Positions 8,189 to 55,668 are shown, numbered from the stretch's first letter. The stretch: 64,000 nucleotides of DNA from Dehalogenimonas sp. (GCA_050859015.1 CP139473.1:471927-535926); one strand, 5' to 3'. Notes: a model not told the origin generated them from the sequence alone. Translations and numbers: made by a program.

Positions 8189-11100
8189 CTAATGCCAGTC
8201 CTTTGATGAAGGCGCTTTTTCCAAAGCGGAGAAGGGCCTCACCTCGTTCACCACCACATTGTGGGTGCCTTCACGGCGCGACAGCCTGCCTTTGACCACC
8301 AGGAACGGCGATTTGAACTTATGCTCTTGACGCCCGTAAACCTGGGGGAAGACCATCAGAGGCACGTGGCCGAACTCATCTTCAAGAGTAATAAAGACCA
8401 CTTTACCGCGCGGCCGCTGGCGGCGGATAACCATGCCGGCAGTGGTCACCTCATCGCCATCGCTCAGATGCTCGATATCTTTGCTGGAACTCACCCAGCG
8501 GCTGAACCGGGGTCTCAAAGAGGCCATAATATGACCTGCAGGGAACAGGCCGAGGACGTTGTATTCCTCCTGCATCTTTTCCCACGGGGTGAGCGATGAT
8601 AGTTTCGTCATATCCTGAGCCACAGGAAGAGGCAGGAAGAGTTGGGAGTTGACCGGGCGGTAGCGAAGGCCGATCTCCCATTTGACCTGTCGGCGGTTTG
8701 GCTCCAGTGAATCGAACGCGCCAGCCGCGGCCAATGCCAGAGCCGTCTCCTCGAGTACGCCGCTACGCTCCAAAAAATCACCGACATTTTTAAAAGGCCC
8801 GGATTCGTTTCTGCCCTTAAGGATAGCGCCGGCTGAGGCGGATCCCAGACCGCCGACGTGCAGGAATCCCAGTCGCAGTGCATTGCCTTCGATGACGCTA
8901 ACGTTGGAACTGCGGTTGATATCCGGATTGAGCACGGTCACGCCGTGGCGCCGGGCGTCTTCTTTGAGCGTTTCAAGGTTGTAAAAGCCCATCGGCTGTT
9001 GATTGAAAATGGCGACGAAGAACTCCAGCGGATAGTAGAGTTTCAGCCACGATGCCTGGTAGGCGGTCACGCCAAAGGCGAAGGCATGGGATTCCGGGAA
9101 CATGTACTGGCCGTTGAATTTATCCCAGATGGCCTCGGCGGCAGTCTCGCCGACACCTCGGGCGGCAGCGCCTTCCATGAACTGCTTATGATAGTGGCTG
9201 AGCAATGTCTCGTTATGATGGCGGCCGAAGGCGCGACGGAGCTGATCGGCGGCGAGTGGGGAAAAGCCGGCGACGTCGATGGCCAACTGGTTGACCTGAT
9301 CCTGGAAGAGAATGACGCCATGGGTACGCTCAAGGGAACGTCGTTCAAGATCATGGTCATATCTAATTTTGTTTTTCTTACTTCGCCTGGCGAGATACTC
9401 CTGGACGCCGCCGTTAACGCCGACGCCCGGGCGCACTGCCGCCACCTCGTGGGCCATATCCAGCAGATTCCGAGGACGCAGGCGGGTGATGGTCTGCATC
9501 TGGGCGGCTGATTCTACCTGGAAGATGCCGATGGTATCGCCTTTACCGAGTATGTCATAGACCCTCTGGTCGTCGAAGTCGATGCGGGACATGTCGATGC
9601 GTTGCCCAGTGCGTTTCTTGATCAGTTCGACCGCTTCCTGCATCTGAGACAGGGCGCCGAGGGCCAGGAAGTCGATCTTAACGAAGCCTGCGTCGTCGAT
9701 GCTGTCTTTGTCCCACTGGCAGACATAGCGGCCGTCGATGGCGCCGCGCTGAACTGGCACGATGTCGGTCAATGGATCGGTGGAGATGATCATGCCGCCG
9801 GGGTGCTGCCCCATGTACTTCGGGAAGCCGTCCAACTCAGCGGCAAGTTCGATGAGGTCGCGCCAAACCGGTGAATCTATTTTGTCCCGGAAATGGGGGC
9901 TCTTTTCCATCTGGGCTCCGAGCCGCCGGGCACTGCCCCAATTGACGTGCTTGGAAAGCTGGTCGACCTCCTCCAGCGGCAGTCCCAGTGCCTTGCCCAG
10001 GTCGCGGACAGCGCCCTTGATCTGGTAAGTAGCAATGGTTCCGGCCAGGGCGGCGTTACGCCAGCCCCACTTGCCGTGCGTCCGCAGAATGAGGTCTTCA
10101 CGGATGGAGCGTGGGAAGTCCAGGTCTATGTCCGGCACACAGCCCATGGCATCTTCCGGCAGAAAGCGTTCCAGGGACAGTTTGTACTTGAGCGGGTCGA
10201 TGTGCGACAGGCCGATGAGGTAGCCGATGAGGAGGGCCACAGAGGAGCCGCGGCCGCGGCCGGGCGGGTTCTCCTCAAGGGTCAGCGAAGGGTCGGACAA
10301 CCCCTGGTCGATCATAGCCTCACGCCCCAGGGTGATGACATCGCGGTAGAGGAGTAGGAAACCGGCCAGCTTATGCTTCCTAATCAGCCGGAACTCCTCG
10401 TCCAGGCGTGACTTAACCTCGAGGGTAATAGCGCCGTAGCGCCGCACCGCGGCATCAAGGCACAGTTTTTCCAGGAAGCTATCCGGGGTAAAACCATCCG
10501 GCACCGGGTAGTCCGGGAAGGTGTAGCCGGAATCCTGCGTCAGGTCGAAGCGGCAGCGCTCGGCGATCTTCACGGTGTTGGTCAAGGCGTCGGGGCAACC
10601 TTCGAATATGGCCTCGATCTCGGCTACCGAGCGCATGTAGAACTCGGAGTTGGGCCGCCGCTCCCGGTGACTCCCCTCCAGGCTCTGGCAGGCCTTCACC
10701 GCCACCAGGCAGTCCTGCAGGCGGTGGCGCTCCCGGACATGGTAATGGACGTTGCCGGTGGCGACGACCTGGACGCCGCATTCGCGGGCCAGGGCGACGA
10801 GCGCCTTGTTGCGGGCACGATCGCCGTAGACCTGATTGCTCTGTAACTCGATGAAATAGTTATCGCTGCCGAACCAGCCAAGGTACTGCCGGATGAGATG
10901 GCGAGCCTCTTCGAGCTTTCCACCCTCGACGAGTTGAGAAAGTTCGCCCTTGGGGCATCCGGATAAACAAATCAGCCCTGCCGCATGTTCGCCGATGATC
11001 TCCGGCGGCAGTTCGGGATTGAGCCGGTCGGGAGCTTCGTGGGCGGCGGTGATGAGGCGGCAGAGGTTGCGGTAGCCTTCCCGGTTCTCGGCCAGGAAGG

Positions 11101-43703: not shown

Positions 43704-46022
43704 ATGGCGGAAAACTCAGTACTAATCGTCGACAGCGACCCCAAATCCCGCGACACAGCGGCCTGGCTCAAGGGTGCCGGTTTCCGCGTCACCATGGCCT
43801 CCACCGGCGAAGAAGCCCTGAATCTAATCGACAACCAGGACTTCAGTGTCATGCTACTAGACATGCGACTGCCGGGCAAACACGGGCTTGGCGTTTTGAA
43901 AGAGGTCAAGGTTAAGCGCCCATGGATGCAGGCCATCGTCACCACCGACCATCCCTCGGTTGAATCAGCGACCGAGGCTCTGAAACAAGGCGCTGTTGAC
44001 TACCTGGTAAAGCCGTTTTCACCCGAGGAACTGGAAAAACTGGTCAAGGAAACTATTAAGTCGGGTTCCAAGCAAAAAACCGTTTCGGTTCAGATCAAAG
44101 CAAAAACCACGCCGGCTAAAATTACCTCCCAAGCGACTTTCGTCATCTCGACCGAGAGCCTTAAAAACCTAGTCAACAGTTTGATAAAAGAACGCGAGGC
44201 GATCGGGGTTAAGGCAAAACAGGGCAAGTTCTCCTTCGATAAGATAAGAAATTTCGATGAACTTGCCCTCGATTACGACGTCACGGTGAACCCCCCGACG
44301 GCGTTCTTCATTCCGGCTTGCGAGACCATCCTCCGCTACAAACGGGGCGATAATCCGGAGATTACCCCGGTGACCGATACCACGCCGCGTGTCCTTATCG
44401 GCGTCCACCCTGATGATATCAACGCCATCAATCTCCTCGATGAAGTCTTTATGGCCAATAACCCCGATCCAAATTACACCGCCCGACGGCAGAATACCCT
44501 TATCATCGGCGTGGATGTGCTCACACCGTTGACCACCTCTTTTGCCCCTAGCATGGGCACGTACACAGCCGACTCGGGCTTCGACCTGCTGCTGACCAAC
44601 ATTGGCAACTCATCGTATATGATCACCGTGGGTTCCGAAGCCGGGGCTCAGATTCTTGCAAAGTACGCTCAGGTTCGTGAGCCGACGGTAGCCGAAACCG
44701 CTCGCCAAAAGCAAGTCCGCGAAGAGGCGTTGTCCAAATACCGCCTGTTCCTCGACATGCCGCGTGAAAAGATACCTCATCTGCTCGATACGAATTACGA
44801 TAGTCCTTACTGGAAGTCGCGGAGCGAGGCATGCCTCAACTGCGGATCCTGTATCATGGTTTGCCCCACCTGCTTCTGCTTTGACGTACAGGACGACGTC
44901 AGCCTGAACATGGTCGACGGCGAGCGGGTCAGAAAGCCCGACGGCTGCATGCTGGTAGATTTCAGCAAGGTGGCCGCCGGCGCCAATTTCCGCGGCGACA
45001 AGCTCTCACGTTTCCGCCATCGGATGTACCACAAGGGCAAGTATATGCTCGACCGCTACGGCAAGTTTGGTTGCGTCGGCTGCGGCCGCTGCTCCGTCAC
45101 CTGCCTAGCCGAGATCGCGTCGCCGCTCGAGGCTTACAACGCGATAGCAGCCTCGGAGAAGGCTAAGGAAAAAGCTCGCCGCACCATCACCAATACCCGG
45201 CCGCAGCCTGAGCTTTACCTGCCGCACATGGCCAACATCACTAAGATTACCCAGCTTGGCGCCCGCGAGAAGCTATTCGAGTTCAAACTCAAAGACGGAC
45301 ACAAGCTCGGCCACCGGCCGGGCCAATTCGTCGAAGTCTATGTCTTCGGTATCGGCGAATCACCGATCTCCCTGACCTCGTCGCCAACCCGTGACCATAC
45401 CTTCGAGGTAGCGGTCAGGAACGTCGGCAACGTCACCGGCGCCCTGCACAACCTCGAAGTTGGGTCTCCCGTGGGCATCCGCGGACCGTTCGGCAACGGC
45501 TTCCCGCTGGAGCAAATGGAGGGCAAGGACCTGCTTCTGATCGCTGGAGGCATCGGAGTCTTCCCTCTAAGATCGCTTATCGAATACGTTCTCGACAGGC
45601 GCGAGTCTTACGGCCACATCAACCTCTTGTTCGGTTCCCGGTCGCCATCGGAACGGGTTTTTTCTGAGGAGATGGCTCAATGGGCACAAGCCCCCGACCT
45701 CACCTTTATGGAGACTGTCGACAAGGGCGATGAAACGTGGACAGGCAATGTCGGAGTGATCACTACCCTAATACCGAAAGTCCAGGTCGATCCCAAGAAG
45801 ACGGTGGCGGTGGTCGTGGGTCCGCCGATCATGTACCGCTTTGTCACAAACGAGCTTAAAAAGCGCGACCTGGCCGATGACAACATCATCCTGTCGCTTG
45901 AGCGCAAGATGAAATGCGGCGTCGGCAAGTGCGGCAACTGCCAGATCAACGGAGTCTATGTCTGCCAGGAAGGCCCGGTATTCAGCCTGACCCGGTTACG
46001 CACACTAAGGGAGGCCATCTAA
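43704..46022 (+). CDS. Fusion protein: response-regulator receiver domain + HydB/AsrA-like 4Fe-4S subunit + HydG/AsrB-like FAD/NAD(P)-binding 2Fe-2S subunit of a group-3b-type [NiFe] hydrogenase
   Basis: REC: VLIVDSD, phospho-acceptor context MLLDMRLPG, IVTTD, YLVKPF. Middle: CLNCGSCIMVCPTCFCFD and CVGCGRCSVTC. C-terminus: RPGQFVEV, GESPIS, LLLIAGGIGVFPL and CGVGKCGNCQ. Confidence 0.85.
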   Translation: MAENSVLIVDSDPKSRDTAAWLKGAGFRVTMASTGEEALNLIDNQDFSVMLLDMRLPGKHGLGVLKEVKVKRPWMQAIVTTDHPSVESATEALKQGAVDYLVKPFSPEELEKLVKETIKSGSKQKTVSVQIKAKTTPAKITSQATFVISTESLKNLVNSLIKEREAIGVKAKQGKFSFDKIRNFDELALDYDVTVNPPTAFFIPACETILRYKRGDNPEITPVTDTTPRVLIGVHPDDINAINLLDEVFMANNPDPNYTARRQNTLIIGVDVLTPLTTSFAPSMGTYTADSGFDLLLTNIGNSSYMITVGSEAGAQILAKYAQVREPTVAETARQKQVREEALSKYRLFLDMPREKIPHLLDTNYDSPYWKSRSEACLNCGSCIMVCPTCFCFDVQDDVSLNMVDGERVRKPDGCMLVDFSKVAAGANFRGDKLSRFRHRMYHKGKYMLDRYGKFGCVGCGRCSVTCLAEIASPLEAYNAIAASEKAKEKARRTITNTRPQPELYLPHMANITKITQLGAREKLFEFKLKDGHKLGHRPGQFVEVYVFGIGESPISLTSSPTRDHTFEVAVRNVGNVTGALHNLEVGSPVGIRGPFGNGFPLEQMEGKDLLLIAGGIGVFPLRSLIEYVLDRRESYGHINLLFGSRSPSERVFSEEMAQWAQAPDLTFMETVDKGDETWTGNVGVITTLIPKVQVDPKKTVAVVVGPPIMYRFVTNELKKRDLADDNIILSLERKMKCGVGKCGNCQINGVYVCQEGPVFSLTRLRTLREAI

Positions 46023-46771
46023 TGAAACCAAAAGTGGCATTTTTCGATTTCACTTCGTGCGAGGGTTGCCAGCTCGATGCCCTTAACCTTGATGTCGGCG
46101 AAGTCCTGGGACTGCTGGGAGCGGTAGATATCGTCAACTTCCGGGAAGTCAAGACCGATCGCTCCGATGATTACGACATCGCTTTCATTGAAGGCTCCAT
46201 CACCAAGGAATCCGAGATTCCGCGACTGCAGGCCATCCGAAATCAAGCCAAGGTGCTGGTGGCTCTCGGCGCCTGCGCCTGCACCGGCGGCGTCAACTGT
46301 CTCAAGAATGTTTACTCGTCAGAAGAACTCTTAAAGGGCGTTTATGGTGAATGCGCCTCTTTTTATAACACTATCCCAGCCCGTCCGGTCAACGCCGTGG
46401 TGCCGGTGGACTACTACATCCGCGGTTGTCCGCCCACTACCGCCGAGTTTGTCAAGGTGGTCAAGGCATTGCTACTTGGCAAGCGGCCGGACCTACCCAA
46501 CTATCCCGTTTGCACCGAGTGCCGGGTAGCAGGCAACGTCTGCGTCTTTCAACGGGGGGGCACCTGCATCGGCCCGGTGACTCGTGGCGGTTGCGACGCA
46601 ATGTGCGTCGGCGCCGGACGCTTTTGCTGGGGATGCCGGGGTTTGGTGGAAAATCCCAATACCGATTCAGCCAAGGATGTTCTGGCCCGCTACGGCCTGA
46701 CGATCGATCAAATTCTAGAACGGTTCAAGATTTACAACTCCTATTCGGAGGTATCGCAGTGCCAGAAGTAA
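46022..46771 (+). CDS. [NiFe] hydrogenase small (delta) subunit, group 3 type
   Basis: MKPKVAFFDFTSCEGCQL..., GACACTGG and YIRGCPP motifs. The ATG overlaps the upstream stop (TAATG). Confidence 0.9.
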   Translation: MKPKVAFFDFTSCEGCQLDALNLDVGEVLGLLGAVDIVNFREVKTDRSDDYDIAFIEGSITKESEIPRLQAIRNQAKVLVALGACACTGGVNCLKNVYSSEELLKGVYGECASFYNTIPARPVNAVVPVDYYIRGCPPTTAEFVKVVKALLLGKRPDLPNYPVCTECRVAGNVCVFQRGGTCIGPVTRGGCDAMCVGAGRFCWGCRGLVENPNTDSAKDVLARYGLTIDQILERFKIYNSYSEVSQCQK

Positions 46772-48030
46772 AGATCAAGGTCAACCAGTTAACCCGCGTC
46801 GAGGGTCACGGCAATATTCACCTGGAAGCCACCGACGGAAAACTCGATAAGGTCCTTTGGGAAGTCACCGAGAGCCCGCGCTTCTTCGAGTGGATGCTTA
46901 AAGGTCGCCACTTCGACGACGTCTCCACCATTTCCTCCCGCATCTGCGGCATCTGCTCGATTGCCCATACCACTGCCTCGCTTCAAGCGACCGAGGCCGC
47001 CTTCGGCATCAAGCTGACCGAACAAGCATGGCTGCTGCGGAAATTGCTTTTCGATGCCGAATTACTCGAGAGCCACGTCCTTCATGTTCTTTTCCTCATC
47101 GCACCGGATTTTTTGGGTGCCGATTCGGTCATCCCATTGGTAGCTACTCATGGCGATGTCATCGTTATGGCGGTCAGGATGAAGAAGCTGGCATACAATC
47201 TGGCCGAGGTCCTTGCCGGACGCAAGACTCATCCCATTACTCCCATCGTCGGCGGCTGGAGCAAGCTGCCGGATGTTGACGCCCTGAAGGCTGTCCGCGA
47301 GCGGCTGGTTTCCGCTCTCGATGACGCCGAGACCATGGTGGCGGTGGTCAAGTCGCTGGCGCCGATGATCCCCAATTTCAACCGTCCCACCGAGTATATC
47401 GCCCTCAAGGACTCCAAGGAATACGCCTTCATCACCGGCAAGATCGCCTCGTCGGATGGCGGAATCTACACGTTGGAAGACTATGCCAAGATCACCAACG
47501 AGTTTTGTGTTCCTCAGTCCTCCGCTAAGTACACCAAGCACGCGCGAGATTCATATATGGTCGGCGCGCTGTCCCGCTTCAACCTAAATTCGGAACAATT
47601 ATTACCCCGAGCTAAAAAAGCCGCCGCCTCACTGGGTATGAAGGCGCCGATCAACAATCCGTTCTTCATCTCTGTCGCCCAGACTGTTGAGACGGTCAAC
47701 TGCATCGAGGACGCTATCAACATCATCGACAAGCTTCTCGCCAGAGGTCTACATCCTGAGGAAGTTAAAGTCAAACCCAGGGCAGGTCGGGGGGTAGGCA
47801 TTGTAGAAGCTCCGCGAGGCATGCTCATCCACGATTATACATACAACGATGCTGGCGAGATCGTTTCCGCCAACTGCATCATCCCCACTGGCCAGAATCA
47901 CCTGTCCATCCAGAAGGATTTCGACGCCCTGGCGCCGACCATCCTGGAGAAGCCTGTCGACGAGATCCGGCATACCCTGGAAATGCTGGTCCGAGCCTAT
48001 GACCCATGCATTTCCTGCTCGGTTCACTAG
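46759..48030 (+). CDS. [NiFe] hydrogenase large (alpha) subunit, group 3 type
   Basis: RVEGHG, RICGICSIAH, EAPRGMLIH and a C-terminal DPCISCSVH followed directly by the stop codon. The GTG at 46759 has a GGAGG RBS 7 nt upstream and overlaps the small-subunit 3' end. Confidence 0.9.
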   Translation: MPEVKIKVNQLTRVEGHGNIHLEATDGKLDKVLWEVTESPRFFEWMLKGRHFDDVSTISSRICGICSIAHTTASLQATEAAFGIKLTEQAWLLRKLLFDAELLESHVLHVLFLIAPDFLGADSVIPLVATHGDVIVMAVRMKKLAYNLAEVLAGRKTHPITPIVGGWSKLPDVDALKAVRERLVSALDDAETMVAVVKSLAPMIPNFNRPTEYIALKDSKEYAFITGKIASSDGGIYTLEDYAKITNEFCVPQSSAKYTKHARDSYMVGALSRFNLNSEQLLPRAKKAAASLGMKAPINNPFFISVAQTVETVNCIEDAINIIDKLLARGLHPEEVKVKPRAGRGVGIVEAPRGMLIHDYTYNDAGEIVSANCIIPTGQNHLSIQKDFDALAPTILEKPVDEIRHTLEMLVRAYDPCISCSVH

Positions 48031-48110: not shown

Positions 48111-49595
48111 TCAGGATGCCCGCGGTTTCGGCGCGATGCCGATCGGCAGAGTAGAATCTTTTGATCCCGTGAAGCCGGATAGTTTCTGCTGCGCCGTCTT
48201 GTAGAATTTATTGACCTGGCCGTGGAATTTAACCAGTTCACCGACTTCCCGCATAAACTTGACCGGGTTCTTGAATGCAGTCAGGAAATAGGCTGGGTTG
48301 TGCTTGAGGGTAAATCTGACCCTCTGGGCGGCATAAGTAGCCCGCCAATTAGCCGCGGCCTCGGTCATCATTTCTGTCGGCACGCTTGAAAGGTTGATCT
48401 TGTTGGCGTACTCGATAAGGTACTCCGGCCAGTCTTCCAACCTCTCCGGTGGCGTGATCAAGCCCTGTTTTACGCAGTAATCGTACAGGGCGCTGCCGGG
48501 GAAGGGTACGAAGCGGTTGTACATGTAATATGGATTGTCGAGCCGTTTCAACATTTCGTGGGTGGCCTTGAAATCCTCGATGGTCTCGGTGGGATAGCCG
48601 TAGATGATGTATACCGATGTGCGAATCTTGTGACGGACCAGGCTCCAGAAAGTCTCTTCCATCTGGGGCACAGTGATGTCTTTCTGCATGAAGTCGAGAC
48701 CCCGCTGGCTGCCACTCTCCAGTCCCAATCCGATAGCGACGCAGCCGGCCTTGGCCATCAGGGCTACATCAGCCTCGGAGAGATCAGCCCTTGAATCGCA
48801 GTTCCAGGCGATCTTGATCTTGCGTTCGATGAGTAAGTTGCAGAAGTCGCGCAGCCGCTTCCGGTTGAAGGTGAAGTTATCCTCGTCGAAGCGGATGTAT
48901 TTGGCATCATAGGTTTTCCGCAGGAATTCGATCTGGGAAATGATGCGCTCGGCCGAAAGGAAGGCATAATAGCCCTTGTTATAGGACTTGTTATAGCAGA
49001 AGGCGCAGCGGTGGGCGCAGCCGCGGGAGGTGTTGATGCCGATCATGGAGTATTTCTTGACGGGTACCAGGTGCCAGGCCGGGTCCGGCATGGCTTCCAG
49101 GTCATGGACAAAAGGCCGGGGTTCGTTGATGATCATTTCGCCGTTTCGTTTGAAGGCCAGACCCTTGATTTCCTCAATTCTTAGTTCGCCAGTTTCGAGA
49201 TGGTTGGCCAGTTCCAGCATGGTGTGTTCACCGGCACCGATGACGGCATAATCGACATAGGGCTCGGAGAGGGTCTGTTTGGGCAGGACGCTTACGTGAA
49301 CGTTACCCCAAACTATAGGCACATCAGGCAGCAGTTCGCGGAAACGCTTGGATTGGTAGATGGAACCTTCCAGGTTAGGGCCGGTGATGACCGAAAGGCC
49401 GATAAGCTGAGGCTGCCATCCGACGAAGTCCTCAAGCTTGCGATCATCCACGAACCCGTCGTAGACCTGGACCTCGTGGCCGTTCTGTTCAAGGAAAGAA
49501 GCAATGTACAAAAGCCCCTTCGGCAGGTTGGTGTAGGCTTTGGCGTAATAAGCGGAATAGTTGGGATTGGGGGCGGTGACCAGAAGGATTCTCAT
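48111..49595 (-). CDS. Class B (B12-binding domain) radical SAM enzyme
   Basis: N-terminal Rossmann-like B12-binding-type region (MRILLVTAP...LLYIASFLEQNGHEV...), then SRGCAHRCAFC (CX3CX2C) and the TIM-barrel remainder. The start overlaps the upstream stop (TAATG). Confidence 0.85.
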   Translation of the reverse strand: MRILLVTAPNPNYSAYYAKAYTNLPKGLLYIASFLEQNGHEVQVYDGFVDDRKLEDFVGWQPQLIGLSVITGPNLEGSIYQSKRFRELLPDVPIVWGNVHVSVLPKQTLSEPYVDYAVIGAGEHTMLELANHLETGELRIEEIKGLAFKRNGEMIINEPRPFVHDLEAMPDPAWHLVPVKKYSMIGINTSRGCAHRCAFCYNKSYNKGYYAFLSAERIISQIEFLRKTYDAKYIRFDEDNFTFNRKRLRDFCNLLIERKIKIAWNCDSRADLSEADVALMAKAGCVAIGLGLESGSQRGLDFMQKDITVPQMEETFWSLVRHKIRTSVYIIYGYPTETIEDFKATHEMLKRLDNPYYMYNRFVPFPGSALYDYCVKQGLITPPERLEDWPEYLIEYANKINLSSVPTEMMTEAAANWRATYAAQRVRFTLKHNPAYFLTAFKNPVKFMREVGELVKFHGQVNKFYKTAQQKLSGFTGSKDSTLPIGIAPKPRAS

Positions 49596-50458
49596 TAGAT
49601 CAGGACCTCCTCGGCGAAAATTTCATCAAGAATCGAACCAGGCCGGCGGTTAAGCCCGACCACCTGCGTCAACCATGTCCCGGACTCGGGATTATCCGGT
49701 TGGCAGGCTTCTTCGGGGAAGACGTTATAGATCGGGTATTTCAGGTTCTCGTCCCCGCGGAAATGAAATACCCGGTTCAGGTGTTTTTTCACTGATACAG
49801 CCGCTTCGTCCATCTCTGCTAGCGTTGGTCTCTGCCAGTGATTGCCGCCGCAGGGGAAGTAGGGTAGCAGGATGAAGGGGATGTTGGGGTCGCGCATGGC
49901 GACATAATCGGCGATCTGCTCGATCTCGTCGGCACCGATATAGCCGGGTATCAGGACTGAGTCGACCACTAGTTTTGTGCCGGATGCTACCAGGGCATCG
50001 AAGTTACTTAACGTTTTTCTGTTCGAGACGCCCGTATAGTCGATGTGAAGTTTTTCATTCAGGGCTTTGAGGCCGACCTCCAGAGTGTCGGTGCAACTAA
50101 GGTCAGGTAGCGTGTGGGCGTTGGTGACCAGCGTCACTCTGGCTCCGTACTTTTCATGGCACAGACGGGTGAATTCGGGATAAGCCGGGTCGAGGCCGGC
50201 TTCCTGTCCCTCGATAACCACGGAGTGAAAATCGAGTTCATCCAGGATCTTTTCGACTTCGCCGAGAGTCAGGAAACGGGTTGGCGGTTTCGCGGCTAAA
50301 GCCGGGCGTGCGTCCAGCATCTTCCAGAAGTCCAGCATCGGGCTGAAGATCTGGTTGACGCAGTAGCAACCGAGGCATCTGAAGTTGCAGCCCCAGAAAT
50401 GGACGCAGACATCCTTCTGCTCCGGGGTGTAAGTGATATGGTAAATATTTGTCCTCAC
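49595..50458 (-). CDS. Non-canonical CX3CX2C (radical-SAM-activase-like) protein, paralog 2
   Basis: GCNFRCLGCYC. It aligns end to end with the C-terminal 270 aa of the gene at 50654..51796. It has EGQEAGLDP where GGEP is usual. The GTG start overlaps the stop of the 60-aa ORF (GTGA). Confidence 0.75.
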   Translation of the reverse strand: MRTNIYHITYTPEQKDVCVHFWGCNFRCLGCYCVNQIFSPMLDFWKMLDARPALAAKPPTRFLTLGEVEKILDELDFHSVVIEGQEAGLDPAYPEFTRLCHEKYGARVTLVTNAHTLPDLSCTDTLEVGLKALNEKLHIDYTGVSNRKTLSNFDALVASGTKLVVDSVLIPGYIGADEIEQIADYVAMRDPNIPFILLPYFPCGGNHWQRPTLAEMDEAAVSVKKHLNRVFHFRGDENLKYPIYNVFPEEACQPDNPESGTWLTQVVGLNRRPGSILDEIFAEEVLI

Positions 50459-50637
50459 TTTGACCTTGCCAGTAATGAATTATCCCTGAGTCCAGCGATG
50501 TGCTCCCGCCCGTTACCGCAGCCGGCGTCTGCCCAGGGCGGCACTGTTTCGGACCATCGCCGCGCCCCGCGATCTGCGATAAGGAACATCGTGGACCCAA
50601 TCAGTGAAACAACAGTTATTATCAAGACGGTCAACAT
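50455..50637 (-). CDS. 60-aa single-pass membrane peptide inside the rdh accessory operon
   Basis: MLTVLIITVVSLIGSTMFLIADRGARRW... An AGGAG lies 8 nt upstream of the ATG. It starts 17 nt after the preceding stop and has a 4-nt overlap with the next gene. Confidence 0.55.
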   Translation of the reverse strand: MLTVLIITVVSLIGSTMFLIADRGARRWSETVPPWADAGCGNGREHIAGLRDNSLLARSK

Positions 50638-50653
50638 TTTCAGCGCTCCTGTA

Positions 50654-51796
50654 TCAAACGGCGACTTTGTCCAGTTCCTGGCTGGCCAGGAATGCTGGCG
50701 GGACAGCGCCTGTAACCTGGCCTATGCCTTCGGGGAAAGCGCTGGAGACGGCATATTTGAGTTCTTCATCGCCCCTGAAGAAAAAGACGCGCGGGAGGTG
50801 TTTCCGGGCGGCTTCGGCTGCTCGCTCCATTTCGGCGATAGTTGGTCTCCGCCATGGATTGTCGCCCGCCTTGAAGTAAGGCAGGATGACGAAGAGCATA
50901 TCCTTCTTTATTGATGCCACATGCTGGGCGATCCGCTCGATCTCCTCGATGTCGATATAGCCTGGGATATAGACCGATTCGACAAAGGTGTCTTTGCCGG
51001 AAGCCACCAGCCTCTTTAGATTCTCAAGAATGGGCGTGTTGGATACCCCGGTGTAATCGATGTTCAGGTGATCCGAAACGGCCTTGATGCCAATTTCTAC
51101 GCGATCGACATGGGTCAGGTCCGGCAGCTGCAGTCCATTTGAAAGAAGCAGGTTCTTGGAATGATATCTCTCGTGGAGCAGGCGGGCGATATTGGCGAAT
51201 TCCGGGTCAAGTCCCGCTTCCTGTCCTTCCAGCACGACCGAGGTGAATTCGTATTTATCGAGGATAGCCAGCAGTTCATCGATGGTCAGGAATTCCTCCG
51301 GGGCGGGCGCCGTGCCGGTCGGGTCTTGCCGGTGGGCACCGAGGAAGTCGGGCAGCATGGGGGAGTAGATACGCCGTTTGCAGTAACAGCCGCGGCATTC
51401 GATATTGCAACCCCAGAAGAACAGGCAGATCTCCTTGAGTTCCGGAGTGTAGGAAATGTGGTAGATGCGGGTCCTGGCGGAGCCATCATGATAGACGCCC
51501 AGCTTTTTGAACTCGTTGATGATCAGCTCGGCGTTCTCGCTGAAGGTGACCATAGGCTCGACCTTGAACTCGGATAGGCAATACATCGGGAAGTCGATCA
51601 GGTTCTTGATGAGTTCCTCATGCGATGGCACGTCGAAGATCAGGAAACCCCCGCCTGCGGCGAAGCTGTAAGCGCTCTCAAGAATGCCTTCAGCTTTCTT
51701 CTGTTTGATCCATTCTTCACTCTTTCTGAGGAACATCACCTTGGTGTTGTAATCCGGCGGGTAAACTGCCTGTTTTCCAGTGGCGTAGTATTTCAT
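50654..51796 (-). CDS. Fusion of a ~110-aa alpha+beta (muconolactone-isomerase-like?) domain with a non-canonical CX3CX2C radical-SAM-like domain, paralog 1
   Basis: Start at the ATG at 51796 (MKYYATGK...), with a GAGGAAA RBS. The N-terminal domain contains GGGFLIFDVPSHEELIKNLIDFPMY. It is followed by GCNIECRGCYC, EGQEAGLDP, IDYTGVSN and IPGYI. The extra 25 codons in the ORF track run through a hairpin. Confidence 0.75.
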   Translation of the reverse strand: MKYYATGKQAVYPPDYNTKVMFLRKSEEWIKQKKAEGILESAYSFAAGGGFLIFDVPSHEELIKNLIDFPMYCLSEFKVEPMVTFSENAELIINEFKKLGVYHDGSARTRIYHISYTPELKEICLFFWGCNIECRGCYCKRRIYSPMLPDFLGAHRQDPTGTAPAPEEFLTIDELLAILDKYEFTSVVLEGQEAGLDPEFANIARLLHERYHSKNLLLSNGLQLPDLTHVDRVEIGIKAVSDHLNIDYTGVSNTPILENLKRLVASGKDTFVESVYIPGYIDIEEIERIAQHVASIKKDMLFVILPYFKAGDNPWRRPTIAEMERAAEAARKHLPRVFFFRGDEELKYAVSSAFPEGIGQVTGAVPPAFLASQELDKVAV

Positions 51797-51840
51797 TATA
51801 TTTCCTCGAAACTGCGAACTTGATTGCTGCGAACCCGGGT

Positions 51841-51870
51841 TGAGGTGGAGGGGAAACTCCCTCCACCTCA
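51841..51870 (-). other. Strong hairpin between rdhB and the accessory genes (no U-tract)
   Basis: TGAGGTGGAGGG and CCCTCCACCTCA form a 12-bp perfect stem around a ~6-nt loop, starting 8 nt after the rdhB stop. Confidence 0.6.
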
Positions 51871-51878
51871 CTTAAATG

Positions 51879-52172
51879 CTAGGCGGCTGTCTTGCGCTTG
51901 GCGATCAGAACGCCGGCGACGGCGAACAGGATGAGAGCCGGGATGCCCATGAAGGTCAGGAACATGGTGGCAGCCTGATTCTCCCATTCTGAAACCGAAC
52001 CGAAGTAGTTCTGGAGAGCAAAGAGTCCGAGCAGCAGACCGACGGTGATTATCGCCCAGTCATACCACTTGGTGACTTTGCCCTTGCTGCGCAGGAAGAT
52101 ACCCAGGACCGCCAAAAGCCCGATGCTTACAGCGGAGATCAGGAACCAATAGGGAGCTTGATAGATCGTCAT
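51879..52172 (-). CDS. rdhB: Reductive dehalogenase membrane anchor
   Basis: A 97-aa protein with three TM helices, 26 nt downstream of rdhA, with an AGGAGAAAG RBS. Confidence 0.85.
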   Translation of the reverse strand: MTIYQAPYWFLISAVSIGLLAVLGIFLRSKGKVTKWYDWAIITVGLLLGLFALQNYFGSVSEWENQAATMFLTFMGIPALILFAVAGVLIAKRKTAA

Positions 52173-52198
52173 TTACTTTCTCCTGTTTTTGTTGTGTA

Positions 52199-53746
52199 TT
52201 ACCGGCCTTTCCAAGCCGAAGCAGCGGTGTCGATACCCATGGTCGGCAGGTTCATATCCCACCAATCTTCCGGGTTGTCCATGTTGCCGTAACCGAAGGA
52301 TTCGCCCATGGTGGCGAAGAAGCTGTTGAACAAAGATGTTTGGGAAATGGTTTGCTTGACCAGGGCATGGACCATGGCGGCGCTGTCGATTGAGAAGGTG
52401 CAGTAACCCCAGCACTGGCTGCAGCCTGAGGCTTCGGAACGGTATTCCTGGCAGCGGACGTAGTTGTTCCAAAGCATCTTGGCGCCCAGGGCATGGAAAG
52501 TGCGTGATTTGCCTTCGAAGGCCGGCGGTTCGTAGGTGGCCGCGTCGCTCCTGGTGGTCGTCTCGATACAACCGGCGGGGCAGTTCTTGGCGCAGAAACC
52601 GCAGGTCTGGCAGAATTTCCACATGCCGGCGTCGATTGGCTTGGTGGGCGCCAGATCCAGGTCGGTTACGAAAGCGGTCGGATACTGGGCTGGACCGAAT
52701 TCCGCGGTCAGACCATAGTTCTGCTGGCGGGAGGATTCTTCGCCGCCGACCATGACGCCGGCGCCGTTGACGTTGAAGATTTCAGTCTGATGCCCGGTGT
52801 TCGAGCAGCTCTGGTAGCCCAGGCTGCGGATGAAGCGGTGGAGACCGCCGTAGATGAAGTCCGAAAGCGTGCCGCCGGTGCCGTTGGGGCCCGGGAAGCT
52901 GGTGGTGTAGTAGCCCTTGGAGGCGTTCGGCGCCTTGAGGAACTGGCGGGCGACCGGGGGAGTAGCCCAGATGACCGACTTGAAGCCGGAAGGAATCACC
53001 ATCTTGCCTTCGATCGATTCCAGGTCAACCGGCGAGGGAACATCCTCGATGGTGTACTTCAGCGAGTTTTTCTCTGTCGGCAAGTTGCTCTCATACGTGC
53101 CGCCCTTGTACTCGGCGGTGGCGCCCTTGGTGGTGTAGGCCACCAGCATCTTTTCTCGCCAGAAGGAATCGAATTGAGCGTAGCCGGTGAGGGACGCGCC
53201 GTAATACCGCAGGGCAGCGTTCATCATCTTGGAGGCCTCTTCCGGGGAACCGGTCCATTTGGTGGTACCGAGATCCGCGGGGGTCTTGGAGGGGGTGTAG
53301 GTCGTAGCTGAGTTGAGAGCTGTCGGACCGGTCCAGCTTTTCCTCCAGTTGAGGCCCATGGCGGCGGCGCTGGACATGACCCTTGACCTGAGGGTGTAAC
53401 CGGGAGTTTCGAAGGTCCGGGCGTCGGTGATTGCTTTTCCTTTAGCTGCGGCTGCTTCGCGGCGAGCCCAGGTCTCGGTGTAGTATGATTTGCACAACGT
53501 GGTCTGGGATTGGTAGCGGCGGTCGTAGCGCTTCAAGAGAGACTGATCGATTTCGGTGGTGGGATTCAGGAAATCGCGCTCTTTAACGTACCAGGGCCGC
53601 TGTGGCGCGGCTCCGCTGGAGGCGGCGAGTTCATCGAGGTCGTGGAAGGTAGGTGCGACGAGAGCCGCAGCACCGATTCCAGCCCCGGCCAGGCCGAGAT
53701 TCTTCATGAAATCACGGCGTGATACGGTTCCGTGGAATATAGACAT
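52199..53746 (-). CDS. rdhA: Reductive dehalogenase catalytic subunit (corrinoid/Fe-S)
   Basis: TAT signal SRRDFMKNLGLAGAGIGAAALVAP. Two Fe-S motifs, CQTCGFCAKNCPAGC and GCSQCWGYC. 515 aa, followed by rdhB. Confidence 0.9.
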   Translation of the reverse strand: MSIFHGTVSRRDFMKNLGLAGAGIGAAALVAPTFHDLDELAASSGAAPQRPWYVKERDFLNPTTEIDQSLLKRYDRRYQSQTTLCKSYYTETWARREAAAAKGKAITDARTFETPGYTLRSRVMSSAAAMGLNWRKSWTGPTALNSATTYTPSKTPADLGTTKWTGSPEEASKMMNAALRYYGASLTGYAQFDSFWREKMLVAYTTKGATAEYKGGTYESNLPTEKNSLKYTIEDVPSPVDLESIEGKMVIPSGFKSVIWATPPVARQFLKAPNASKGYYTTSFPGPNGTGGTLSDFIYGGLHRFIRSLGYQSCSNTGHQTEIFNVNGAGVMVGGEESSRQQNYGLTAEFGPAQYPTAFVTDLDLAPTKPIDAGMWKFCQTCGFCAKNCPAGCIETTTRSDAATYEPPAFEGKSRTFHALGAKMLWNNYVRCQEYRSEASGCSQCWGYCTFSIDSAAMVHALVKQTISQTSLFNSFFATMGESFGYGNMDNPEDWWDMNLPTMGIDTAASAWKGR

Positions 53747-53889: not shown

Positions 53890-55668
53890 TCATTGCGCGG
53901 CAAACATCTGATCAACAAGCCGAGTTCCCTCGTCGCTGGTGCACAGGGGCTGGAGTTCACGGCTCTGGTCGCGGTAAACGGTGATGCCTTTGAGGCCCTG
54001 CTCGAAGGCCATCATGAACACCCGGGCGATGTCGTCTCGGGTAGCGTTCTTCGGGAAATTGACCGTTTTGCTGACGGCATTGTCGATGTGCCTCTGGAAT
54101 GCCGCCTGGATACGGACGTGCCAGTCAGGCGACACCCGGTGGGCAGTGACGAAGACCCTGCGGATGTCTTCCGGGATTTCTTTGCGGCTGTGGAGGTGGT
54201 TCGAGGTCACCAATTGTTCGATAAGGTCGCGGTTATAAAAACCCCGTTCGCGGGCGATCGTTTCGAAATAGGGATTGATTTCCAGCAGGTTTTCGCCGTC
54301 GAGAATGTTCCTGACGAACACGGCGGCGAAGATCGGTTCGATGCCGGAGGACACGCCGGCGATGATGGAGATGGTGCCCGTCGGGGCGATTGTGGTGCAG
54401 GCGGCATTTCTCATGGGCAAGTCCTGCTTTTCATAGACGCTGCCATGCCATGCGGGGAACACTCCCCGTTCCAGGGCGAGTTCATGGGAGGCTTGCCTGG
54501 CATGATGGGAGATAAACTCAATGATCTCTTCGGCGATAGCGATAGCCCTGGTGGAGTTATAAGGCACGCCCAGCTTAATAAGCATGTCGGCGAAACCCAT
54601 GACGCCCAGGCCGATTTTCCTGGTCCGCTTGGTGGTGTGTCCGATCAACGGGACCGGGAACCTGTTTACATCGATGACGTTGTCCAGGAACCGGACAGCA
54701 ATGGGTACCAATCGCCCAAGGCGTTCGTAATCGATGGAGAGAGAGTCGCCTTCATTTTTCAGCATCGCGGTCAGGTTGATCGAACCCAGGTTGCATGACT
54801 CGTATGGCAAAAGCGCCTGTTCGCCGCAGCCGGTGATCGTTTCCAGTCTACCGAGGGTTGGGGTCGGATTATCGCGGTTGATGCGGTCGATGAAGACAAG
54901 GCCGGGGTCGCCGGTGCTCCATGCCTGGTCGACGATGCGATTGAACACCGCGGCGGCGTTCAGTTTTCCTACAGCTTCACCGCTGTTTGGTTCAATAAGG
55001 GAGTAATCCTCGCCCATCCTCACTCTGGCCATAAAATCGTCGGTGACCGAAACGGAATTGTAGAAATTGGTCAGGGTGTTAGGGTTGCTCTTGGCGCTGA
55101 TGAAATGGAGGATGTCCGGGTGGGTGACATTCATCACCACCGAATTGCAGCCTCGCCGGACCCCGCCCTGCCGGACGTAATCAGCGGCTCCGGCAAATAC
55201 GTGGATCAGGGATACTGGACCGCCGGCGGCATCCAAGTGCTCGCCTACAGCGCTGCCGGTAGGCCTGATATGGGACACATTGAACCCGATACCGCCACCG
55301 CTTTTGTGGATCATAGCGGTGTATTTCACGGCATCGAAGGTCTCTTCCAACGAATCGGGCACCGGAAGGACGAAACAGGAAGACAACTGACCAGCCTCTG
55401 TGCCGGCGTTAAGTAGGGTTGGGGAGTTGGGCAAGAATTCAAGGGAAGCCATCGCCCGGTAAAACTCATCGGCGACACCGTCCACATCGGCTTCGGGGTT
55501 ATAGATATGCTCAGCCGAAGCGACAAAACCGGCGACCCGGCGGAACATTTCCTCGGGCGTCTCGATAATCCGACCGGTGCGGTCGCGTCTCAAATAGCGC
55601 TTTTCCAGGACCCGGAGGCCGATGGGGGTGAGAGCGAGTTCGGTTTCTCTATTAATCTCTAGCACCAT
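53890..55668 (-). CDS. nrdJ: Class II (adenosylcobalamin-dependent) ribonucleotide reductase
   Basis: LEFLPNSPTLLNAG, SCFVL, the active-site region CNLGSINL and the C-terminal redox Cys region. It is a compact 592-aa form. Confidence 0.9.
   Translation of the reverse strand: MVLEINRETELALTPIGLRVLEKRYLRRDRTGRIIETPEEMFRRVAGFVASAEHIYNPEADVDGVADEFYRAMASLEFLPNSPTLLNAGTEAGQLSSCFVLPVPDSLEETFDAVKYTAMIHKSGGGIGFNVSHIRPTGSAVGEHLDAAGGPVSLIHVFAGAADYVRQGGVRRGCNSVVMNVTHPDILHFISAKSNPNTLTNFYNSVSVTDDFMARVRMGEDYSLIEPNSGEAVGKLNAAAVFNRIVDQAWSTGDPGLVFIDRINRDNPTPTLGRLETITGCGEQALLPYESCNLGSINLTAMLKNEGDSLSIDYERLGRLVPIAVRFLDNVIDVNRFPVPLIGHTTKRTRKIGLGVMGFADMLIKLGVPYNSTRAIAIAEEIIEFISHHARQASHELALERGVFPAWHGSVYEKQDLPMRNAACTTIAPTGTISIIAGVSSGIEPIFAAVFVRNILDGENLLEINPYFETIARERGFYNRDLIEQLVTSNHLHSRKEIPEDIRRVFVTAHRVSPDWHVRIQAAFQRHIDNAVSKTVNFPKNATRDDIARVFMMAFEQGLKGITVYRDQSRELQPLCTSDEGTRLVDQMFAAQ

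Follow-up and report, generated by a model that had tools for sequence, protein, structure and literature searches.

The question raised by this locus is what the genes that follow a reductive dehalogenase operon in Dehalogenimonas do, and on which molecule their products act. The stretch analysed, hereafter the window, is 64,000 nucleotides long (Dehalogenimonas sp., GCA_050859015.1 CP139473.1:471927-535926; coordinates are counted from its first letter). In it the dehalogenase genes rdhA and rdhB are followed on the same strand by four genes, called here genes i to iv, which encode two small radical S-adenosylmethionine (SAM) proteins with a CX3CX2C motif (i and iii), a membrane peptide (ii) and a B12-binding radical SAM protein (iv). 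The radical SAM family of genes i and iii is uncharacterised and linked to cobamides, and beside nrdJ-rdhAB it has been extended in a lineage-specific way. This family is found mostly inside cobalamin-riboswitch-controlled btuFCD/DUF71/cbiZ/cbiB/cobUTSC operons; in Dehalococcoidia it has moved beside two unrelated B12-dependent enzymes, NrdJ and RdhA, and Dehalogenimonas loci combine it with one to three genes for B12-binding radical SAM proteins. On balance we consider it probable that in the genes after rdhB this family, whose ancestral job would be cobamide handling, has undergone an elaboration specific to Dehalogenimonas, and that these genes process the B12 cofactor for the adjacent B12 enzymes.

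The locus is composed as follows (aa, amino acids).

53890..55668, minus strand: nrdJ, adenosylcobalamin-dependent class II ribonucleotide reductase of 592 aa (TIGR02504, 654 bits, cut-off 400)
52199..53746, minus strand: rdhA, reductive dehalogenase catalytic subunit of 515 aa with a twin-arginine translocation (TAT) signal (TIGR02486, 235 bits, cut-off 160; PF13486)
51879..52172, minus strand: rdhB, open reading frame (ORF) for a membrane anchor of 97 aa, whose orthologues in L073, L074 and L076 match PF27193 VcrB
51841..51870, minus strand: stem-loop with a perfect 12-bp stem, directly after the rdhB stop, without a U tract
50654..51796, minus strand: gene i, 380 aa, GCNIECRGCYC (PF04055, 1.2e-11)
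51473..51796, minus strand: N-terminal domain of gene i, about 108 aa, muconolactone-isomerase-like beta-alpha-beta-beta-alpha-beta-alpha fold
50654..51472, minus strand: radical SAM domain of gene i, CNIECRGC, small activase-like partial TIM barrel (PF04055)
50455..50637, minus strand: gene ii, 60-aa peptide with a single transmembrane helix and a conserved VPPWxD in the tail after the helix
49595..50458, minus strand: gene iii, 287-aa radical SAM paralog of gene i, GCNFRCLGCYC
48111..49595, minus strand: gene iv, 494-aa class-B (B12-binding) radical SAM protein, GCAHRCAFC (PF02310, 69.7 bits; PF04055, 78.4 bits)

The six ORFs from rdhA to gene iv stand where an earlier note, made from the sequence alone, had placed them, with the motifs, ribosome-binding site, overlaps and hairpin that it described. 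RdhA has a TAT domain and weak Fer4 matches, and the pair shows the features of an rdhAB operon, namely a TAT-bearing RdhA, two Fe-S motifs and a small membrane anchor. Upstream, nrdJ ends 143 bp before the rdhA start; downstream, 82 bp separate rdhB from gene i, whose length of 380 aa is counted from an ATG start also used in its orthologues. Gene ii has an AGGAG ribosome-binding site 9 nt 5' of its start, and the ii/iii and iii/iv junctions overlap (GTGA and TAATG, respectively). Over 253 aa, gene iii and the radical SAM part of gene i have 53% identity (E 3e-97).

Genomic context of the small radical SAM family

We surveyed the context of the family using one genome per GTDB species and a single peptide pattern, which gave 69 loci whose neighbours were clustered, with representatives checked against Pfam. 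The loci belong to Dehalococcoidia, Omnitrophota, Planctomycetia, Nitrospirota, Aquificota, Deltaproteobacteria/Thermodesulfobacteriota and several archaea. Within 5 kb, at least one cobamide transport or salvage gene is present in 57 of the 69 loci, btuF, btuC or btuD in 54, nrdJ in 7, rdhA in 6 and nothing B12-related in 4; these proportions are approximate, because one peptide pattern was used and named Dehalococcoides (D. mccartyi) and Dehalogenimonas species were missed by it. The typical order is btuF-rSAM-btuC-btuD in Dehalococcoidales (rSAM, small radical SAM gene), another being cobC-cobU-cobT-cobS-cbiB-cobD-asnB-DUF71-(cbiZ)-rSAM-btuF-btuC-btuD-cobO-TonB receptor. Pairs of a long and a short radical SAM gene occur inside B12 operons too (L049, L050 and L060). 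Cobalamin riboswitches (RF00174/RF01482) lead seven of the eight btuF-linked operons tested. The suggestion of the earlier note that the module serves corrinoid chemistry thus finds strong independent support, the family being lodged in riboswitch-controlled btuFCD/cbiZ/cbiB/cobUTSC operons of many phyla.

The family is also linked to nrdJ. The stop codon of the small radical SAM gene and the start of nrdJ are 2-3 nt apart, or overlap, in seven species of Dehalococcoidia, an arrangement that amounts to translational coupling. In two loci (L039, L045) rdhA-rdhB follow nrdJ at 92-142 bp, and the spacing is similar in the window (143 bp), L073 and L076. In all, nrdJ-rdhA-rdhB are combined with the radical SAM genes in the window and in L073, L074, L076, L039 and L045. 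D. formicexedens has two nrdJ-rdhA-rdhB-rSAM loci, so nrdJ has been duplicated along with dehalogenase operons.

The same survey bears on the proposal, also made in the earlier note, of a machine dedicated to the dehalogenase. Because rdhA lies near the family gene in only 6 of the 69 species-level loci, and because a sister clade is coupled to nrdJ, we tend to exclude such a dedication. For the core radical SAM family, this is one of the outcomes that the earlier note had itself named as refuting its proposal.

A second unexplained system stands in cobamide salvage operons of Omnitrophota and Nitrospirota. This is CbpB, a peptide-modifying radical SAM/SPASM protein (TIGR04163, 677 bits; L063 7945-9318, and also L056, L060, L066, L072, L047 and L048), with AsnB-like and DUF71-B12 genes alongside. 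In L066 and L072, short ORFs upstream of CbpB share the motif ..SYRLKCA(K/R)TANGLSHFVMYGDV...

Relation to glycyl-radical enzyme activases

Could genes i and iii be ordinary members of a characterised activase family? Both are Radical_SAM proteins by profile search (PF04055, 45-46 bits against a cut-off of 29.5), as had been anticipated, and the resemblance to activases of the PflA/NrdG/YjjW type is real. Like these, they are small (about 245 aa) partial TIM barrels with an N-terminal CX3CX2C motif, and they share collinear motifs (GQEA for GGEA, GVSN, IPGY, LPY...W). The AlphaFold model of the gene i radical SAM domain has a pLDDT above 90 over residues 110-360, and its best PDB match by Foldseek is the activase PFL-AE (3c8f, E 2e-14, TM score 0.73, 21% identity). 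Judging from this model, the small, open, PFL-AE-like partial barrel would suit a bulky substrate.

However, the family differs from the activases in having Gly instead of an aromatic residue before the third Cys (CxxxCxGC), in its own near-invariant N-terminal IYHIxYTPE, and in its neighbours, which are B12 transport and salvage genes, NrdJ and RdhA. Against curated activase models (TIGR02493, TIGR02494, TIGR02495, TIGR04041 and others), gene i reaches at best 37 bits and gene iii 33, with cut-offs of 174-430; the whole family scores 25-67 bits against cut-offs of 126-500, which places the CX3CX2C proteins outside the characterised activase families, contrary to an outcome that the earlier note had named as refuting it. 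In ORFs longer than 500 aa across about 80 loci, the loci only being searched, the C-terminal glycyl-radical fingerprint R[IVT][CSA]G[YFW] was not found. An ordinary PflA/NrdG activase with its partner elsewhere is therefore disfavoured, both by the sub-threshold scores and by the lack of a glycyl-radical enzyme in those loci.

The sequence blocks common to genes i and iii, already noticed when the two were recognised as paralogs, are near-invariant in 71 family members. The family is rare, with about 97 representative clusters at E<=1e-30 among 1.84 billion, and no NCBIfam model is specific to it. In a neighbour-joining tree (the method used for all trees here), the rdh-linked i-type and iii-type proteins are sister clades, beside cbiZ-linked and nrdJ-linked clades, and all of these are nested among btuF-linked clades.

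Variants of the module

The genomic context of gene i was read from its orthologues. In D. formicexedens NSZ-14 (L073) the order is nrdJ-rdhA-rdhB-rSAM380-55 aa-rSAM294-B12rSAM494 (B12rSAM, B12-binding radical SAM gene; numbers are lengths in aa), with 87-92% protein identity and the same flanking hydrogenase and arg genes, and the operon of Dehalogenimonas sp. 4OHTPN (L074) is syntenic with the window. Together with the variant loci below, these two confirm genes i to iv as a module that is conserved and uncharacterised. A second D. formicexedens locus (L076) reads nrdJ-rdhA-rdhB-130 aa-rSAM278-rSAM283, the 130-aa protein being a free form of the gene i N-terminal domain (86% identity). The order is rdhA-105 aa-rSAM-B12rSAM in L079 and B12rSAM-105 aa-rSAM-rdhA in strain WBC-2 (L080); in two loci from metagenome-assembled genomes (L004, L007) a small radical SAM gene and two to three B12-binding radical SAM genes are followed by rdhA. 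In D. mccartyi we find rdhA-rdhB-CxxCxxCC-rSAM247-rSAM285, without N-terminal domain, peptide or B12-binding radical SAM gene. Since the locus variants differ in composition and order, the parts of the module are themselves modular.

Nor is the module confined to rdhA. In D. etheniformans GP (L077), the small radical SAM gene, three B12-binding radical SAM genes and a peptide are followed by an RdhA C-terminal remnant only, and no intact rdhA lies within 8 kb. In L078 (D. lykanthroporepellens-like), DUF71-rSAM-B12rSAM has an isomerase-fold protein nearby on the opposite strand, with no rdhA within 8 kb. The RdhAs that stand directly beside the module group together in a tree of 18 sequences.

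Some particular features of these loci may be mentioned. The remnant in L077 (11167-11454) is a 95-aa ORF that matches the C-terminal end of RdhA (..FGYG....EDWWDM.LP..), apparently what is left of a decayed dehalogenase gene; beyond it are two more radical SAM genes, one with a PqqD domain. In D. mccartyi L001 (6644-7216; 13940-14560), a PF03692 CxxCxxCC putative Fe/Zn-binding protein of 190-206 aa follows rdhB in two operons, once directly before the radical SAM pair, and in L039 two proteins of similar size, grouped together by sequence clustering alone, flank the rSAM-nrdJ-rdhAB cluster. In 4OHTPN, the first gene of a cbiZ-cbiB-cobO operon, which lies 5 kb downstream of the module (L074 18069-21086), encodes a third family member (262 aa); salvage-linked and rdh-linked forms thus coexist in one genome.

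Gene iv, a B12-binding radical SAM protein

Gene iv has the class-B domain order, an N-terminal B12-binding domain (PF02310, 69.7 bits against 32.1) before a radical SAM core (PF04055, 78.4 bits against 29.5), as the earlier note had proposed. In this it resembles BchE, BzaD/BzaE, ApyD, CysS, TsrM and OxsB. It differs from them in falling below the cut-off of every named subfamily tested (BchE 172 against 481, ApyD 149 against 750, BzaD 107 against 450; likewise HpnJ, PhpK and others), in its pairing with the small radical SAM gene in Dehalogenimonas, and in the fusion of some relatives to kinases. An identity as BzaD/BzaE or BchE is rejected, all matches being far under the cut-off. Its closest sequence relative in the PDB is AprD4 (55 bits), with CysS, OxsB and TsrM also among the best.

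Dehalogenimonas has an expanded set of gene iv relatives (at least four paralogs in D. etheniformans), and no D. mccartyi protein is among the best 120 matches to gene iv. All nine Dehalogenimonas-type loci that have gene iv relatives pair them with a small radical SAM gene (window, L073, L074, L004, L007, L077, L078, L079 and L080).

In other relatives, proteins of about 780 aa, CX3CX2C is retained and histidine-kinase domains (HisKA/HATPase) are fused on (L082 698-3043, P0158 and P0178). This suggests that in the fusion kinases the B12-binding radical SAM domain serves as a sensor input. In L082 the order is nrdJ, fusion kinase, response regulator and two rdhAB pairs.

Peptide and N-terminal domain

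Is gene ii a gene at all? It has homologues in 5 of the 11 module loci (window, L073, L074, L007 and L077), all with an N-terminal transmembrane helix followed by (V/I)PPW(A/T/P)(D/E), and in two comparisons the proportion of non-synonymous differences (pN) is far below that of synonymous ones (pS), 0.10 against 0.75 and 0.38 against 0.85, as expected under purifying selection. We conclude from the homologues and from these ratios that the 60-aa ORF is genuine, as the earlier note had assumed, and a chance ORF is ruled out. The peptide was undetected in L001, L004, L076, L078, L079 and L080.

The N-terminal domain of gene i belongs to a tiny family of 8 homologues, mostly free-standing proteins of 105-130 aa; stand-alone forms (100-130 aa) are found in L076, L078, L079 and L080. 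Its resemblance to muconolactone isomerase, remarked on from the sequence, holds at the level of the fold, sequence matches being below the Pfam cut-off: PF02426 (MIase, cut-off 26.7) gives 17.7 bits (E 0.004) for gene i and 23.4 bits for the stand-alone protein of L076, and a profile of the domain against the PDB gives the 5-chloromuconolactone dehalogenase ClcF (E 0.003), with a weak collinear match over residues 49-83. Modelled alone, the domain has a pLDDT of 77.5 (27-80 within the full-length gene i model), and its best Foldseek matches are ClcF and muconolactone isomerase (E 4e-6, TM score 0.65-0.75), with E 3.8e-6 and TM score 0.73 for ClcF 3zo7 and E 3.9e-5 for 1mli. The domain shares with these enzymes a ferredoxin-like beta-alpha-beta-beta-alpha-beta fold with a C-terminal helix. 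In contrast to them, it is only about 20% identical, it is fused to, or stands directly upstream of, a radical SAM enzyme, and no aromatic-degradation genes are nearby.

The conserved peptide raises an alternative, namely that the module works in the manner of enzymes that make peptides synthesised by the ribosome and then modified post-translationally (RiPPs), or modifies a protein. The radical SAM enzymes would then act on the 60-aa peptide, or on a loop of RdhA, RdhB or NrdJ, and the product would be a modified peptide or a matured enzyme. The closest fold, PFL-AE, does act on a protein loop; the second-best named match of gene iv is a RiPP enzyme, ApyD (149 bits); the D. etheniformans cluster (L077) runs on into a radical SAM protein with a PqqD/RRE domain; and the peptide is under purifying selection. 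Peptide chemistry also has a precedent in B12 operons, since CbpB (677 bits) is found there in other phyla with short upstream peptides. However, the peptide of the module is present in fewer than half of the module loci and begins with a transmembrane helix, not a leader; the btuF-linked majority of the family has no conserved peptide beside it; none of the four proteins of the window has an RRE/PqqD domain; and gene iv is far below the cut-off of the RiPP models. We therefore regard this explanation, which the earlier note had offered as its alternative, as weak, and think it unlikely.

A role in cobamide handling

Returning to cobamide processing as the preferred explanation, the question arises as to what the module might do. 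Cobamide is the common denominator of the neighbours, that is, the B12 importer, salvage and loop-assembly genes, NrdJ, RdhA and the B12-binding radical SAM enzymes. For this reason genes i and iii would act on the cobamide, or on the way it reaches its client enzymes, and not on a glycyl-radical protein. In the mechanism that we propose, proteins i and iii, probably as a heteromer, would bind SAM at a [4Fe-4S] cluster, generating a 5'-deoxyadenosyl radical to be used on the incoming cobamide instead of a glycyl-radical protein. The likeliest target would be the upper axial position of the cobalt, where a Co-C bond would be made or broken, so as to give each client its ligand state: adenosyl for NrdJ, unliganded for RdhA and methyl-cycling for gene iv. 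We favour processing of the upper ligand because the ligand states of the clients differ and because an adenosyl radical suits Co-C chemistry. The eukaryotic counterpart of such a role, by analogy, would be the processing by CblC, a family to which these proteins do not belong. Alternatively, the radical may attack the nucleotide loop together with the DUF71-B12 protein, a second option kept because of the close pairing with DUF71-B12.

The other parts of the module can be fitted to this scheme. Gene iv may contribute a second tailoring step, peculiar to Dehalogenimonas, whose target would be the cobamide or else a protein or peptide. The isomerase-fold domain would be a small alpha+beta accessory subunit, fused in the window and free elsewhere, and the transmembrane peptide is probably a membrane tether or a small subunit.

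Several points weigh against cobamide processing. The substrate is read from gene neighbourhood alone, in a survey whose single pattern makes the proportions approximate, and the closest solved structure, PFL-AE, acts on a protein, not on a cofactor. The window has no other cobamide gene, CbiZ homologue included. Neither the window nor the eight rdh- or nrdJ-linked loci have an RF00174/RF01482 riboswitch; Rfam at gathering thresholds returns no RNA family at all in the 64-kb window, tRNAs and riboswitches included. Finally, the ATP:corrinoid adenosyltransferase CobO is co-encoded in many of the salvage operons that have the radical SAM gene. A simple adenosyltransferase role would be redundant there, and a SAM-dependent stand-in for CobO is accordingly disfavoured.

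A bolder version of cobamide processing seems to us rather doubtful. In it the family would be the missing radical-based step of anaerobic B12 trafficking, a prokaryotic analogue of CblC that acts on the Dehalococcoidia clients by re-forming or replacing adenosylcobamide on NrdJ and by loading RdhA. Active reductive dehalogenases are difficult to obtain from other hosts, and this version, if true, would explain the failure of functional heterologous expression of those of Dehalococcoidia.

Quite unlikely, in our view, is a B12-sparing scenario, in which the small radical SAM protein docks on NrdJ, and perhaps on other clients, and supplies a 5'-deoxyadenosyl radical from SAM, either replacing adenosylcobalamin or re-forming it on bound cob(II)amide. 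On this view the family would activate or reactivate B12 enzymes rather than work in salvage. The translational coupling to nrdJ in seven species speaks for it, as does the NrdG/PflA-like fold with its weak likeness in sequence (NrdG2, 60 bits for L049). Riboswitch control, moreover, means expression when B12 is scarce, which is the pattern of B12-independent back-up enzymes. Yet most members of the family lie between btuF and btuC, or among cobUTSC/cbiB, and not beside a client enzyme; the NrdJ of the window scores as a normal adenosylcobalamin-dependent enzyme (TIGR02504); and RdhA catalysis makes no use of an adenosyl radical.

The hairpin after rdhB

Does transcription from rdhAB reach the module? 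The hairpin at 51841-51870 is strong (dG -32 kcal/mol, z -3.7), and stem-loops of 12-16 bp stand at the same place in L073 (about 9930-9965), L074 and L076, with compensatory base changes among the four Dehalogenimonas operons compared. It is not called as an intrinsic terminator, and a canonical one is ruled out, as the U tract is absent. For the same reason an mRNA-stabilising or attenuating element is more likely than a full terminator, and we propose the hairpin as a candidate for such an element, setting the ratio of rdhAB to the accessory genes; it would probably let rdhAB mRNA build up above that of genes i to iv. This role is consistent with the abundant bicistronic rdhAB transcripts, with terminators, of D. 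mccartyi strain CBDB1 (PMC12961961).

That genes i to iv are chance neighbours, an independent operon in a plastic region with transcription stopping at the hairpin, is very unlikely: the hairpin is indeed strong and conserved between rdhB and gene i, terminators are described with the CBDB1 transcripts, and rdh regions are rearrangement hot spots (PMC2764846), but the adjacency is retained in at least nine loci of Dehalococcoides and Dehalogenimonas with varied gene order, the module-adjacent RdhAs group together, the hairpin lacks a U tract, and no promoter-like site was found on the coding (minus) strand within the 82-bp gap.

Relation to known accessory genes

How do genes i to iv, taken as cobamide-processing genes, relate to those already named beside rdhAB? 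In the relevant passages of PMC5574268 and PMC2764846, rdhF-I, a nomenclature attributed there to Kube et al. 2005, are presumed assembly, maturation or corrinoid-modification genes next to rdhAB, and rdhI is glossed as a 'corrinoid-modifying protein'. The named set of Dehalococcoides and the module of the window are alike in adjoining rdhAB. They differ in that rdhF is CbiZ-like (PMC12961961) and has no counterpart in the window. Because of this likeness to CbiZ, rdhF is none of genes i to iv, nor does it encode a radical SAM protein, which corrects the earlier note on this point.

For DUF71-B12 (PF01902), a role in pseudo-B12 salvage is predicted on the basis of gene clustering only (PMC3541065). 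The small radical SAM family is found in the operons of DUF71-B12 and CbiZ, often adjoining them (DUF71-rSAM-btuF; rSAM-cbiZ-cbiB), and differs in belonging to another enzyme superfamily. A radical SAM partner is not discussed in PMC3541065, where a term search finds 'radical' a single time, among the references; salvage genes are listed in a 2026 Dehalogenimonas pangenome paper, from which the term 'radical SAM' is absent. In the searchable literature we found no description of the family, of its link to btuFCD or of its coupling to nrdJ.

The reductive dehalogenases of Dehalococcoides and Dehalogenimonas are key catalysts in the bioremediation of chlorinated solvents. We know of no account of how these enzymes acquire their cobamide. 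The present analysis ties rdh-adjacent radical SAM genes to a family that spans at least eight phyla, central to B12 import and salvage operons and also placed beside nrdJ, which makes the family a testable candidate for an undescribed step of anaerobic B12 processing. Genes i to iv offer a defined set of candidate helper genes for co-expression with RdhA, and D. formicexedens NSZ-14 is a cultured carrier of the same operon. The mechanistic interest extends to both B12 trafficking and dehalogenase maturation.

Neighbouring genes

Beyond gene iv, on the plus strand and thus divergent from the rdh operon, the window encodes a 772-aa protein (43704-46022) in which an N-terminal response-regulator receiver domain is fused to Fe-S/FAD sulfhydrogenase-like modules. 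It is followed by the small and large subunits of a NiFe hydrogenase (45914-48030, plus strand), and the arrangement is kept in D. formicexedens.

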